From Pseudonocardiaceae bacterium (GTDB lineage: Bacteria > Actinomycetota > Actinomycetes > Mycobacteriales > Pseudonocardiaceae): DNA of 64,000 nt. Of this stretch, positions 23,583 through 26,568 are shown piece after piece. The notes beneath the pieces were generated by a model. It was not told the origin of the DNA, did not search any database, and worked only from the letters and a program-made list of their open reading frames with translations. The stretch is taken from NCBI GenBank assembly GCA_036501085.1, contig DASYAZ010000016.1:8954-72953 (forward strand), in the 5' to 3' direction. Both the position numbers and the translations under genes were made by a program. The number at the start of each line of letters is the position of its first letter. The first letter of the stretch is position 1.

Positions 23583-24335
23583 ATGACTACGGCGCTGAAA
23601 CAACACGGGCGGTATGACTGGCCGTGGCGGGGTGGGCCCACGTTTCTCACACCGGACGGGTCTCAGGTAACCCTGCGTGGCGACGGTCTAGATACCTCCA
23701 AGCCGTGGTCGTGTGGGTTCGTCGCGATGATGCGGGGCGCGCGCCGCACGTTCACCGTTGCCGAGGCAGGCGCGTTCGACTGGCACAGCGCCTACACCAC
23801 GATCCCCGACCAGATCCAGCGCCAGCCCTACCGGGGGGGCGAGCTGGTGGTCGGTACCCGCAGCCATCCGGCCCCCGGCGAGCCCCCGGACTACCGGGCG
23901 GCCTGGCTCGGGCACTGGTTCGAGCTGCACACCCGGGCTTGCGGTTCTCCCGGCAGGATCACCGACATTTTCGACGCGTTCCGGTTGACCGACACGCCGC
24001 TGGGGATGCTGGCGCAGCCCCGCAGTGCCGGGCAGGCCCAGTTGGAACCGGTACGGCCGGCCAAGGAGATCCCCGGGATCGGCTACCTGACGATCGAACG
24101 CCCCGGGGTCAGCCAGATCACGGTCCCCGAGTTCCGGGGGCACCTGACCCAGCACGGGGAACTGTGGCGCCAGCCGCTCGGCGCCGGAGCGGCGGGCCGG
24201 TCCCGGCCGGAAGCCCTGGTCCTGGCCACTCCCACGGCAATCACCAGGCTCGTCCCCGGCCCGGCAGACACCGCGGATGCGCGGGAAGCGCTAGCCTTCC
24301 TGGACGAGCTGAACGTGATCTGGGAGCCGGCATGA
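23583..24335 (+). CDS. Hypothetical protein, first gene of the MauE-like operon
   Basis: 250 aa from ATG 23583 behind GGGGAG. No signal peptide, no motif I recognise. Its stop overlaps the next start (ATGA). The upstream part of track ORF 22992.. overlaps the P450 gene and is discarded. Confidence 0.55.
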   Translation: MTTALKQHGRYDWPWRGGPTFLTPDGSQVTLRGDGLDTSKPWSCGFVAMMRGARRTFTVAEAGAFDWHSAYTTIPDQIQRQPYRGGELVVGTRSHPAPGEPPDYRAAWLGHWFELHTRACGSPGRITDIFDAFRLTDTPLGMLAQPRSAGQAQLEPVRPAKEIPGIGYLTIERPGVSQITVPEFRGHLTQHGELWRQPLGAGAAGRSRPEALVLATPTAITRLVPGPADTADAREALAFLDELNVIWEPA

Positions 24336-24823
24336 TCCTGCTGGGAGTGCCCGTCCTCGCGGGCGCATTCCTGCTGGTCGAAGCCGGCCTTGAGCACATC
24401 CGGGCACCCAAGGCACTGGCTCGGGCGGCCGGTACCGGCCTGGGCATGGCCCGGCTCATCGCGGCCGTGGAGTTCGTGGTCGGGGTGCCCTCGGTCATCG
24501 CGGTGGTCTTCGGCACCGCCGAGCTGCGCTGGGCGCTGGCCGCCCAGACGGCGATGTACCTCGGCTTCGCCGCGCACCTGTCGTGGCGGCGACTGCGGGG
24601 CGACGACTCCGACTGCGGCTGCAACAGCATGGGCACCCAGGTCGGTCCCGGCGGTATCGCCCGGGCCGTGTTGCTGGCGATCGCCACCTGCGCGGCAACG
24701 GCGCTGTACCCGGCGGCCGCGCTGCCCGGCGGGGGGGTCGCGGTCCTGCTCGTGGCGTGCGCGGTGGTGCTGGCGGTGCTGCTCTACACCCTGCCCGCGG
24801 CGGTCGATGGGAAGGCGGCGTGA
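24332..24823 (+). CDS. MauE/DoxX-family redox-associated membrane protein
   Basis: 163 aa, four hydrophobic helices, central DCGCNSMG (the CGC motif typical of the MauE family as I recall). ATGA overlap upstream, GTGA overlap downstream. Confidence 0.65.
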   Translation: MILLGVPVLAGAFLLVEAGLEHIRAPKALARAAGTGLGMARLIAAVEFVVGVPSVIAVVFGTAELRWALAAQTAMYLGFAAHLSWRRLRGDDSDCGCNSMGTQVGPGGIARAVLLAIATCAATALYPAAALPGGGVAVLLVACAVVLAVLLYTLPAAVDGKAA

Positions 24824-25320
24824 GCGTACTCACCGCAGCGGTCGTGCTCGCCTGGTTGTGCCTGGCAGTGCTGACGATGGCGATGGCCGGGATCCTGCGG
24901 CAGCTGCGGCAGCTGCAAACCCAGGTCACCCAGCTGGGGGCGCCGCCCTGGCGCCATGCCGCGGGCCGCCGGGTCCCCGCGCTGTCCGGCGAGGGCCCGC
25001 TGATCCTGCTGGTGCTCGACCCCGGGTGCAGCATGTGCGATTCGGTGCACGGCCTCTTCACCGAGCTGGCCGCGACGCACCCGGGCACCCGGTTCGAGGT
25101 GCTCGCCCCGAGCACCCGCTGGGCAGCGACGCCGCAGATCCGATCCCGGGTGGATCCCGATCTCGTCGCGGAGCTCGAGCTGCCCTGGGCACCGGCACTG
25201 CTGCATACCGATGCCCGGGGGACGGTGCTGGCCGGGCAACCGGTGGCCGCGCCCGAGCGGCTCGGCGAGCAGGTAGCCGGCCTGCTGGACCCCACGCTGC
25301 ACCGGCAAGGAGTCTCATGA
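24820..25320 (+). CDS. Membrane-anchored thioredoxin-fold protein (MauD/TlpA-like), CxxC = CSMC
   Basis: 166 aa. N-terminal TM anchor (LTAAVVLAWLCLAVLTMAMAGIL), then PLILLVLDPGCSMCD, which is thioredoxin-like. GTG start overlaps the upstream stop; its stop overlaps the next ATG. Confidence 0.65.
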   Translation: MSVLTAAVVLAWLCLAVLTMAMAGILRQLRQLQTQVTQLGAPPWRHAAGRRVPALSGEGPLILLVLDPGCSMCDSVHGLFTELAATHPGTRFEVLAPSTRWAATPQIRSRVDPDLVAELELPWAPALLHTDARGTVLAGQPVAAPERLGEQVAGLLDPTLHRQGVS

Positions 25321-25808
25321 ATCTCACCGACATCCCGCGGGTCGACCAGCCCGGTCCCGACCCCCAGCCACGTGCGGTGCAGTTCACCACCATCCTGACC
25401 CTGCGCCGGCGCGGTTTTCTCAGCGTCGCCGGCACCGCGGCGATGACCTTGGGACTGACGGTTCTGGGCTGGATCCCGCTGGCCCGTCCCGCCAGAGCCG
25501 AGGTAGGCAGCGAGTACCCCAACTGCGGCCGCTACTCCAACGGTCCGGGTGGGCCTATCTGCTACGGCGCTCCTTACTCTTCGAAGTATTGCGGCCCGGA
25601 CAACTGGTTCATGGAAGGCTGCTACGGCGACTGGGACAACGGCCTCGACTGCTACCAGGCACGCACGGTCTGCCGCGCCGAGGCGGAACCACGCAACGGC
25701 TGGCGGTGGAAGGCGGACAGCATCGAGTACCGGTGCGCGGACGGCGAGATCCACTACTCCGGAGCGCCGAACCTGGAGCAGGTGATCTGCAACGCGGCGC
25801 TGAACTGA
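25317..25808 (+). CDS. Tat-signal, cysteine-rich small secreted protein of unknown family
   Basis: 163 aa. Long n-region, then TLRRRGFLSVAGTAAMTLGL...ARPARA|EV (twin-arginine motif plus AxA site). The roughly 100-aa mature part has 8 Cys and several Trp (DNWFMEGCYGDWDNGLDCY, NGWRWKAD). Confidence 0.7.
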   Translation: MNLTDIPRVDQPGPDPQPRAVQFTTILTLRRRGFLSVAGTAAMTLGLTVLGWIPLARPARAEVGSEYPNCGRYSNGPGGPICYGAPYSSKYCGPDNWFMEGCYGDWDNGLDCYQARTVCRAEAEPRNGWRWKADSIEYRCADGEIHYSGAPNLEQVICNAALN

Positions 25809-25833
25809 CCGCAGCGAGTATCCAACTTCAGCG

Positions 25834-26001
25834 ATGACACCCGTGGTGCGGCGAGCCATTTTCGGGCCAGTGATGGTGACCGGCCTGCTGATGGGGCTGG
25901 CCCTCGCCGCTGCCGCGGGGCCAGTGCTGCACGCGGGATGGACGCTGGCGTGGCTGCTGCTCGGCTTGACCGCCGGCTACGCCCTGTCCGGCTCGGCATG
26001 A
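25834..26001 (+). CDS. Possible small two-helix membrane protein (55 aa)
   Basis: Below the ORF-track size cut-off. Manual translation gives MTPVVRRAIFGPVMVTGLLMGLALAAAAGPVLHAGWTLAWLLLGLTAGYALSGSA. It is in the same frame as the next gene and has high GC3. Confidence 0.35.
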   Translation: MTPVVRRAIFGPVMVTGLLMGLALAAAAGPVLHAGWTLAWLLLGLTAGYALSGSA

Positions 26002-26067
26002 AGCGTCAACTCGGCGTACCTGCTGAGCTCGCCGGTCTGGCGAGAGTCGTCACGGGCCTACTTCACC

Positions 26068-26568
26068 ATGGGCCTGATCACCGGGGCAGTCACCATCGCC
26101 ACGCTGGCGGTGACTCTGGGTAGCCTGCTGCGCCCGGTGGAACCGCGCCCGGTGCAGTCCGGCCTGGTACTGGCCGCAGCAGTGTTCGTGCTCGCCGGCG
26201 AGTGCGGGCTGCACCGCATCACGCTGCCGCACCGGCGGGCCCAGGTGCCTTCCACGGTGATCGCAGCCGGGGGTGATGCCGGGGCGCTGCGTTTCGGCTT
26301 CGAGATGGGCTGCGGCGTGCGCACCCACCTGCCGAGCAACCTGCCCTACCTACCGCTGGTGACGGTGCTGCTGGTGAGCAGTTGGCCGGCCGCGCTGGCG
26401 ACCGGGCTGGGTTTCGGCCTCGGCCGGGCCGCGATGGCACTGGGCCGCCACTACAGCCGGGACGGCACCTGGTGGGACCACCAGTGGCGACGCCACGAGC
26501 GGGCACTGCGGATCGCCCTGGCGCTGGCGGCGGTCCTCCTCGCCGGTGCCCTCGTGCTGCTGCCCTGA
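26068..26568 (+). CDS. Integral membrane protein, unknown family, last gene of the MauE-like operon
   Basis: 166 aa with 4-5 hydrophobic segments, same strand, short gaps. Confidence 0.55.
   Translation: MGLITGAVTIATLAVTLGSLLRPVEPRPVQSGLVLAAAVFVLAGECGLHRITLPHRRAQVPSTVIAAGGDAGALRFGFEMGCGVRTHLPSNLPYLPLVTVLLVSSWPAALATGLGFGLGRAAMALGRHYSRDGTWWDHQWRRHERALRIALALAAVLLAGALVLLP

Follow-up and report, generated by a model that had tools for sequence, protein, structure and literature searches.

A previously undescribed six-gene actinomycete operon that links a MauE-like protein and a thioredoxin-fold protein to a cysteine-rich protein with a twin-arginine leader

We analyzed a 64,000-nucleotide stretch of a Pseudonocardiaceae bacterium genome assembly (contig DASYAZ010000016.1), hereafter the window, and concentrated on six open reading frames (ORFs) on its forward strand at 23583–26568, which we call gA to gF. 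An original prediction made from the sequence alone had placed six genes at these positions and had noted three successive 4-nt overlaps between them, and both were confirmed. gA (23583–24335) encodes a protein of 250 residues and is followed by gB (24332–24823), encoding a 163-residue MauE-family membrane protein, gC (24820–25320), encoding a 166-residue membrane-anchored thioredoxin-fold protein, and gD (25317–25808), encoding a 163-residue cysteine-rich protein with a twin-arginine leader. The overlaps are ATGA at 24332–24335 (gA/gB), GTGA at 24820–24823 (gB/gC) and ATGA at 25317–25320 (gC/gD). Further downstream, gE (25834–26001) encodes a 55-residue hydrophobic membrane peptide and gF (26068–26568) a 166-residue membrane protein of a new family. 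A Shine-Dalgarno sequence, GGGGAG (23571–23576), lies 6 nt 5' of the gA start. The operon is real and previously undescribed, our literature search having found no description of this cassette, and it is unrelated both to methylamine dehydrogenase and to the indolocarbazole cluster that adjoins it.

The gD protein is divided into a signal peptide (residues 1–61, 25317–25499), delimited from alignments by the twin arginines and an AxA cleavage site, and a disulfide-rich mature part (residues 62–163 with the stop codon, 25500–25808) that constitutes a new domain. The leader carries LRRRGFL at residues 29–35, a weakly hydrophobic h-region (maximum of 1.60 for the signal region in a 19-residue Kyte–Doolittle hydropathy scan, KD19) and a basic c-region that reads R-P-A-R-A|E, with ARA|E at 59–62. 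We aligned 54 diverse relatives, from which all conservation statistics for gD are taken. All 54 have the R31–R32 pair and 52 have A61, so that the AxA site is nearly invariant, which bears out the twin-arginine signal proposed originally. The TIGR01409 model of twin-arginine translocation (Tat) signals gave 13.0 bits for the window gD, below its cut-off of 16.7; eighteen of the 54 relatives match it at E ≤ 0.1 (best E 3.8e-4), and the Knoellia orthologue is annotated by NCBI as a Tat-signal protein. About 20 residues ahead of the twin arginines the n-region contains a motif, (D/E)-(I/V/L)-P-x-x-D-x-x-P, in which P7 is kept in 44/54 and D/E10 in 38/54, and which persists down to ~25% identity of the mature domain. 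Such conservation in the n-region of a signal peptide is unusual.

Eight cysteines (70, 82, 92, 102, 112, 119, 140 and 158) and five tryptophans are found in gD. Cysteines 70, 82, 92, 119, 140 and 158 form a nearly invariant core, while C102 and C112 are a clade-specific pair, both being present in five of the six sequences that have either, and the cysteine count of the mature protein is even in 50/54 relatives. W129 and W131 (53/54 each), R139, D142 and G143 are invariant or nearly so, and the domain is marked by the motifs GTEY, RNAWRW, YRCADG and IC. Neither gD nor gA, gE or gF has a Pfam or NCBIfam match. A sequence profile of gD gave no real match in the PDB; weak matches to the C-type lectin NKG2D and to an SRCR domain (E ~0.5) were set aside, as they reflect only a shared pattern of cysteines and tryptophans. 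The AlphaFold2 (AF2) model of gD has five β-strands, with a predicted local distance difference test score (pLDDT) of 68–90 over residues 85–163. Foldseek returned no PDB neighbor for this model, its top matches being tyrosine phosphatases at E > 0.1, which are meaningless. Thus, gD lies outside known families, as had been suspected.

Close relatives of gD fall into 87 clusters of unnamed proteins, and the members labeled by taxon belong to Pseudonocardiaceae, Pseudonocardiales or unclassified Actinomycetota metagenome-assembled genomes (MAGs); VGL88_01695, encoded in one such genome, is 100% identical to the window protein. An exhaustive profile search extended the family to 137 representative clusters, nearly all of 150–200 residues and matched over their full length, and the wider relatives include a Micromonosporaceae MAG and the cultivated Knoellia. 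Some relatives have C-terminal RicinB lectin domains, either one or two. The variants of 444 residues (locus L091, 4780–6114) and 304 residues (locus L092, 4133–5047) both have gA, MauE and gC genes upstream; downstream, L092 has a gE-sized (54 residues) and a gF-sized gene, and L091 a gF-sized gene. Since the RicinB-fused forms are kept inside a full cassette, we argue that gD works outside the cell. Roughly half of the Pseudonocardiaceae gD proteins have C-terminal tails of 20–60 residues rich in Pro, Ser and Thr, often finishing in LPxLP repeats with an Arg as the last residue; the window gD lacks a tail of this kind.

The assignment of gB as a MauE-like protein with a DCGC motif passed a search against Pfam MauE (PF07291), in which gB scored 32.1 bits over residues 3–121, above the gathering threshold of 27. 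A Micromonosporaceae orthologue reached 40.5 bits. Of the four to five hydrophobic segments in gB, the third and the fourth have D-C95-G-C97 between them, and CGC is kept without exception among orthologues. The Phe-Gly that follows the CXC is not kept in the window clade, which reads DCGCN(S/R/Q)MG, whereas distant cassette members have PCGCFG. Experiments have shown that MauE forms disulfides in the manner of DsbB and has a CXC motif as its active site: MauE proteins of two phyla complement dsbB in E. coli, and the CXC motif, located in the loop between transmembrane segments 3 and 4 (TM3–TM4), is essential (Gonzalez et al. 2026, bioRxiv 10.64898/2026.03.05.709764). MauE is proposed in that work to oxidize a thioredoxin-fold partner and to pass the electrons to quinone; an earlier reductase proposal is also mentioned there, and MauA was found in only ~10% of MauE-containing species. 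We regard gB as a putative quinone-linked, DsbB-like thiol oxidase. In Spirillospora sp. NBC_00431 (locus L084, 3978–5510), a second ORF with a MauE domain (PF07291, 37.3 bits) lies directly 5' of the cassette MauE gene.

The gC protein has one N-terminal TM segment, a C70-S-M-C73 motif and a cis-Pro loop that reads PWAPA. The CxxC is invariant in 13/13 diverse orthologues, and a profile of these 13 sequences matched Mycobacterium tuberculosis MPT53/DsbE (1LU4, E 2.5e-6) and DsbF (3IOS, E 2.9e-5) over ~100 residues, with the CxxC and the PWxPA cis-Pro loop (VPWQPA) superposed. MPT53/DsbE and DsbF have been described as oxidases. Since both active-site elements align in these profile matches, we assign gC as a membrane-anchored, DsbE/TlpA-type thioredoxin-fold protein and not as an orthologue of MauD. 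The MauD equivalog model TIGR02661 gave 15.8 bits, where its cut-off is 188.6, and aligned only with 38 N-terminal residues (4–41), which ruled out MauD orthology. The thioredoxin fold predicted for gC is thus upheld by the family profile against MPT53 but missed by Pfam thresholds: the window protein does not reach the gathering thresholds of Redoxin, AhpC-TSA or Thioredoxin, and the best matches of its orthologues, Redoxin (E 0.0022) and Thioredoxin_2 (E 0.0027), lie below the cut-offs, as does Thioredoxin_3. We consider gC a putative direct oxidant or isomerase of gD.

The linkage of the remaining three proteins to gD is as tight as that of the redox pair. gA had been called an orphan, which is ruled out by more than 120 clusters of homologues, all annotated as hypothetical and free of domain fusions, also in a search with a diverse gA profile. 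gA has no hydrophobic segment and hence no signal or TM segment. AF2 predicts a mostly β structure with high confidence (pLDDT 90, predicted template modeling score 0.86), and comparison of this model to the PDB and BFVD with Foldseek gave spurious matches only (TM-score < 0.25). Few residues are invariant across the broad gA family, among them G192-E193-x-W195 and W247, and a single invariant residue is acidic; gA may therefore be a binding protein rather than an enzyme. gA is kept in the cassette in all orders examined, and it lies immediately upstream of gD where the order is gF-gA-gD (Actinophytocola, Spirillospora and Micromonospora arida). From its predicted localization, conservation and gene linkage, gA probably serves the gD precursor, or its signal peptide, as a partner or chaperone in the cytoplasm.

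The 55-residue ORF, listed originally as a possible peptide, is a real gene, judged by its conservation: it is found in nearly all related loci (69 of the 82 described below), with orthologue sequences from distant orders, and it ends in an invariant motif, AGY(A/S)(L/I)SGS. gF has about four hydrophobic segments, no conserved cysteine and the motif LP-x4-QVP...FG(F/Y)E(M/L)G-x-G-x-RT...LP; it aligns to its Knoellia orthologue with an hhalign probability of 99.8%. The same three considerations as for gA suggest that gE and gF are membrane partners.

We searched species-representative genomes with a gF profile and found relatives in 464 of them. The best 80 loci from this search were pooled with the loci found earlier to give 82 non-redundant loci, in which each gene was counted with profile hidden Markov models. 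The complete set of six was found in 63 of the 82, and contig ends truncate 10 of the remaining loci. The cassette spans several actinomycete orders, and the same six genes occur in the same order amid unrelated flanks, the upstream gene being that of HisRS, HtrA or a CDP-alcohol phosphatidyltransferase in three loci. The proposal of an uncharacterized actinobacterial module with co-occurring genes is therefore well founded.

Gene order varies between lineages: gB-gC-(gE)-gF-gA-gD in Actinophytocola and Spirillospora, gC-gE-gF-gA-gD in Micromonospora arida, a divergent gB followed by gA-gC-gD-gF in Amycolatopsis, gA-gC-gD-gE-gF in Knoellia, Rhizocola and a Micromonosporaceae MAG, and gA-gC-gD, a gap and then gF in Nonomuraea gerenzanensis, whose 11.85-Mb replicon is the sole cassette carrier in the plasmid collection. 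No MauE gene adjoins the cassette in Knoellia, Rhizocola, M. arida, the Micromonosporaceae MAG or Nonomuraea. Since gA, gC, gD, gE and gF survive these rearrangements as a set, they make up the conserved core, and MauE, which had been taken as a cassette member, is a frequent but not an obligatory one. The Micromonosporaceae MAG Dino_bin4 has two cassette copies on two contigs of one genome bin (L079 and L080), and paralogous cassettes can therefore coexist. The MauE-less Knoellia cassette (locus L007, 4058–12506) lies between a rhodanese gene and selD-selA-selB, the selenocysteine machinery, which is probably a coincidence; directly upstream of it is a gene for a 264-residue protein with a weak LuxR-type helix-turn-helix.

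We propose, with moderate confidence, that the six genes form a self-contained module for the export of gD and for its oxidative folding, the latter by a dedicated pair of the DsbB/DsbA kind. The gD precursor would be made with its 61-residue twin-arginine signal peptide, the cytoplasmic n-region of which holds the conserved short motif, and gA may bind this n-region as a private escort or proofreading factor ahead of Tat export. Once the signal peptide has been cut after Ala-Arg-Ala outside the membrane, the ~100-residue domain would gain its three core disulfides, or four in this clade. These would be formed by gC, the membrane-anchored CxxC protein of the DsbE/MPT53 type. gB would in turn re-oxidize gC through its CGC loop and the quinone pool, and it is because of this proposed step that gB and gC would constitute a private DsbB/DsbA-like pair. 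gE and gF, as fixed partners, would probably provide a docking or anchoring complex for mature gD.

Several observations weigh against this proposal. The window gB reads DCGCN where the usual MauE motif is CGCFG, and the window gC has no Pfam match at E ≤ 1. The topologies of gB and gC are ambiguous by a simple positive-inside rule, and their outward orientation is taken from homology. MauE does not adjoin the cassette in several lineages (loci L007, L066, L081, L083 and L090), so that in these either the oxidant of gC would be encoded elsewhere or gC would work differently. Finally, the proposal gives no reason for a plain disulfide protein to take a twin-arginine route. Because such a protein here has a Tat leader, a conserved n-region and a dedicated cytoplasmic protein, there is room for a cytoplasmic folding or modification step, which is possible although unsupported. 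In its strongest form this would make gA a cytoplasmic maturase or escort of new fold that reads the gD leader motif and, before Tat export, folds gD or installs a modification or cofactor, with gD, gE and gF acting as an extracytoplasmic redox or sensing complex. We give this reading little credence; if true, the cassette would define a new class of protein maturation that is guided by a leader and coupled to Tat export.

A cytoplasmic step is also central to the idea that gD is a pre-folded cofactor or metal protein, in which the cysteines ligate a metal or an Fe-S cluster that gA helps to insert in the cytoplasm, hence the Tat route, and in which gB and gC have a reducing or protective role like that of CcdA and ResA. 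An invariant Tat-type signal with a conserved n-region is seen in cofactor-bearing Tat substrates with private chaperones, gA is a dedicated cytoplasmic protein of unknown fold, and the earlier reductase proposal for MauE (cited in bioRxiv 10.64898/2026.03.05.709764) would fit. The cysteines themselves speak against it: they lie ~10 residues apart, form neither a CxxC nor a CxxxC cluster motif, are even in number and are supplemented in pairs; and gD has no conserved His or Met. The redox proteins point the same way, since characterized MauE proteins complement dsbB and the nearest solved relatives of gC are the oxidases MPT53/DsbE and DsbF; we therefore judge a metal protein improbable. On the end function of the module, gD may instead be a secreted antagonistic or glycan-targeting effector, of a bacteriocin-, toxin- or lectin-like kind, with gE and gF as immunity or receptor proteins, gA as immunity protein or escort, and the redox pair serving only for folding. 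As this concerns end function, it is compatible with the maturation mechanism that we favor. The RicinB domains on some gD relatives, the unrelated genomic contexts, the presence of two copies in at least one MAG, and conserved surface-type motifs rich in Trp, Arg and Asp are all consistent with an effector. It is nonetheless rather unlikely: mobility genes and toxin domains are absent, none of the six proteins has a Pfam toxin or immunity match, identities of 65–80% within Pseudonocardiaceae are unlike those of fast-evolving toxin–immunity pairs, and the stoichiometric conservation of six genes would better suit an assembly line or a complex.

Two further explanations take their cue from known MauE loci. 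The original prediction had raised a cross-link or cofactor on gD, which in its fullest form makes gD a MauA-like quinoprotein subunit or a cross-linked protein, with a Trp-derived cofactor of the tryptophan tryptophylquinone or cysteine tryptophylquinone (CTQ) type, or a cross-link, installed with the assistance of gA. The gene order, E-D-substrate as in mau clusters, the long Tat-type leader, the conservation of W129 and W131, and a gA that is well folded in AF2 with no assigned function could all be read in this way. Every available test, by Pfam, PDB profile, Foldseek and gene neighborhood, rejected a methylamine dehydrogenase-like quinoprotein. gD and seven relatives gave no match to the methylamine dehydrogenase light chain (PF02975), nor did gD give one to it in the PDB profile search at E ≤ 10 or in Foldseek. 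Genes for MauB, MauG and amicyanin were absent, as noted originally, from the Pfam-annotated neighbors of the seven cassettes looked at, the window cassette being flanked by P450 and NeuB genes; no window ORF has two CxxCH motifs, and there is no radical-SAM or flavoprotein partner. The even cysteine count leaves no spare cysteine for a CTQ-type link, and one invariant acidic residue in the broad gA family is thin for an enzyme. A cofactor or cross-link of this kind is accordingly very unlikely. We see still less reason to regard the cassette as a cluster for a ribosomally made and post-translationally modified peptide (RiPP) with gD as the precursor. In its favor, decRiPPter identified three candidate Streptomyces families with mauE, one of them also with mauD, each with a precursor of at least 8 Cys (Kloosterman et al. 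2020, PMC7794033); as in the present cassette, an actinomycete mauE outside mau clusters stands beside a Cys-rich exported product. Those precursors are peptides of 46–66 residues with other leaders, no sequence relation to gD and no gA, gE or gF at their loci, whereas gD combines a signal-peptidase site with a folded domain of 100 residues, for which β structure is predicted. Pfam and NCBIfam revealed no family of RiPP tailoring enzymes in the cassette, and the lone precursor-like signal is a weak match of one gD relative in 54 to the NCBIfam model for BufA2, a bufferin-type copper RiPP precursor (E 0.0095). No MNIO/DUF692 enzyme is present in the cassette.

Comparison with characterized systems places the favored module, a private oxidative-folding pair with its exported substrate, between several of them. 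With the mau clusters of Paracoccus and Methylorubrum it shares a MauE protein, a membrane-anchored CxxC thioredoxin fold and a small, disulfide-rich exported protein with a long twin-arginine leader, in the same E-D-substrate order, which is translationally coupled here; the anchor region of gC weakly resembles that of MauD. The mau-like label given to the operon therefore holds for gene order, as a positional likeness, but not for the proteins. gD is related to MauA neither by sequence nor by predicted fold; gC is no MauD orthologue; MauB, MauG, MauF, MauJ and amicyanin are missing; gA, gE and gF have no mau counterpart; and the carriers are actinomycetes. The generalist MauE pathway (bioRxiv 10.64898/2026.03.05.709764) uses a protein of the same Pfam family with its CXC, here CGC, in the TM3–TM4 loop. 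gB differs in sitting in an operon with a putative private substrate, not alone as a housekeeping gene, and in the window clade motif, DCGCN instead of CGCFG, and its activity is predicted from sequence. MPT53/DsbE and DsbF resemble gC as actinobacterial extracytoplasmic proteins of TlpA/DsbE-type fold with a CxxC and a VPWxPA cis-Pro loop, a similarity at the profile level only; they are soluble secreted proteins or lipoproteins, not TM-anchored, and their genes are not beside MauE or gD-like genes.

A substrate-dedicated Dsb pair is known in E. coli and Salmonella, where DsbL/DsbI serves the arylsulfate sulfotransferase AssT. There too a private membrane oxidase and a thioredoxin-fold oxidase share one operon with their secreted substrate, but the membrane component is of the DsbB type and not MauE, the substrate is Sec-exported, and neither a cytoplasmic partner nor extra membrane proteins are known. 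For the cytoplasmic side, parallels are offered by the Tat signal-peptide-binding chaperones TorD, DmsD and NapD and by the Tat hitch-hiking pair MelC1/MelC2. As in those systems, a Tat substrate with a conserved n-region is encoded beside a dedicated, signal-less cytoplasmic protein; unlike them, gA has no sequence or structural similarity to such partners, gD has no known cofactor, and binding of the leader by gA is a prediction from localization and linkage.

Only very recently was MauE shown to represent a third type of membrane enzyme that forms disulfides in bacteria. For the natural substrates of MauE and its partners of thioredoxin fold beyond methylamine dehydrogenase, the cassette offers a compact natural test system, with a MauE, a cognate DsbE-like partner and a single obvious substrate, in cultivable Amycolatopsis and Spirillospora. 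It also defines four unannotated protein families (gA, gD, gE and gF), one of which has a confident predicted structure and no solved relative. The conserved n-region motif in a twin-arginine leader, in turn, suggests a private export escort.

We explored the DNA upstream of gA for control elements. An alignment of 62 upstream regions revealed a clade-conserved element, TGTGCGANNATCGC(N3-5)CAGTNTCC, which lies 25–80 nt 5' of the gA start and has a palindrome, GCGA-N3-TCGC, within it. Of 92 loci, 43 have a single exact copy of the 14-mer TGTGCGANNATCGC, which in 42 of these 43 lies just 5' of gA (for example, at 4195–4208 in L001 and 4413–4426 in L013). The window has a diverged copy, GTGTGCGCCGTCACTCGCGGTCTCG (23543–23567), and its upstream control region on the forward strand (23543–23582) thus comprises a degenerate form of the element (GTGTGCG...CGGTCTC) and the Shine-Dalgarno sequence. 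The element is probably a promoter or an operator. A scan for sigma-70 promoters found none, the Rfam scan gave nothing real, and the sole terminator-like site lies inside gD, within chance expectation.

A hairpin after the P450 gene upstream of the cassette had been noted at 23425–23444 (CCAGCAG-caagcc-CTGCTGG). It is real and is the inner part of a longer forward-strand stem-loop, identified by RNA folding at 23415–23454 over the P450 stop codon (−30.7 kcal/mol, z = −2.8 against shuffled sequences), but it has no T-run and was not called by the terminator scan. This stem-loop, a possible terminator for transcription of the indolocarbazole cluster, sets the limit of the cassette on this side.

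The cluster itself, of the indolocarbazole (bisindole) type, occupies 7645–23424 (7.6–23.4 kb of the window). It comprises genes for a Trp halogenase (7645–9246), a P450 (9394–10653), a StaD/RebD-like protein of 1171 residues (10683–14198), an amino oxidase (13958–15406) and a FAD monooxygenase (16730–18358), all on the reverse strand, and for an O-methyltransferase (15668–16711), a LAL regulator (19061–22099) and a second P450 (22219–23424) on the forward strand. We dropped a link of the cassette to large ATPase-type regulators (the window LAL, a SARP/NB-ARC protein in L008 and an AAA_16 protein in L084), because the window LAL is part of the indolocarbazole cluster and a neighbor of this type is missing from most cassettes.

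Downstream of the cassette, at 26686–29986, are a convergent gene for a NeuB/SAF sialic-acid-synthase-like protein, a methyltransferase gene and a gene for a UDP-GlcNAc 2-epimerase. The related locus L003 has the same downstream flank, with NeuB, the methyltransferase and, further on, the epimerase, and has HtrA upstream of gA in place of the cluster. Thus, the cassette is not part of the indolocarbazole cluster, in agreement with the independence that had been suggested from the hairpin, and genome mining should not count it as such where the two adjoin, as they do here.

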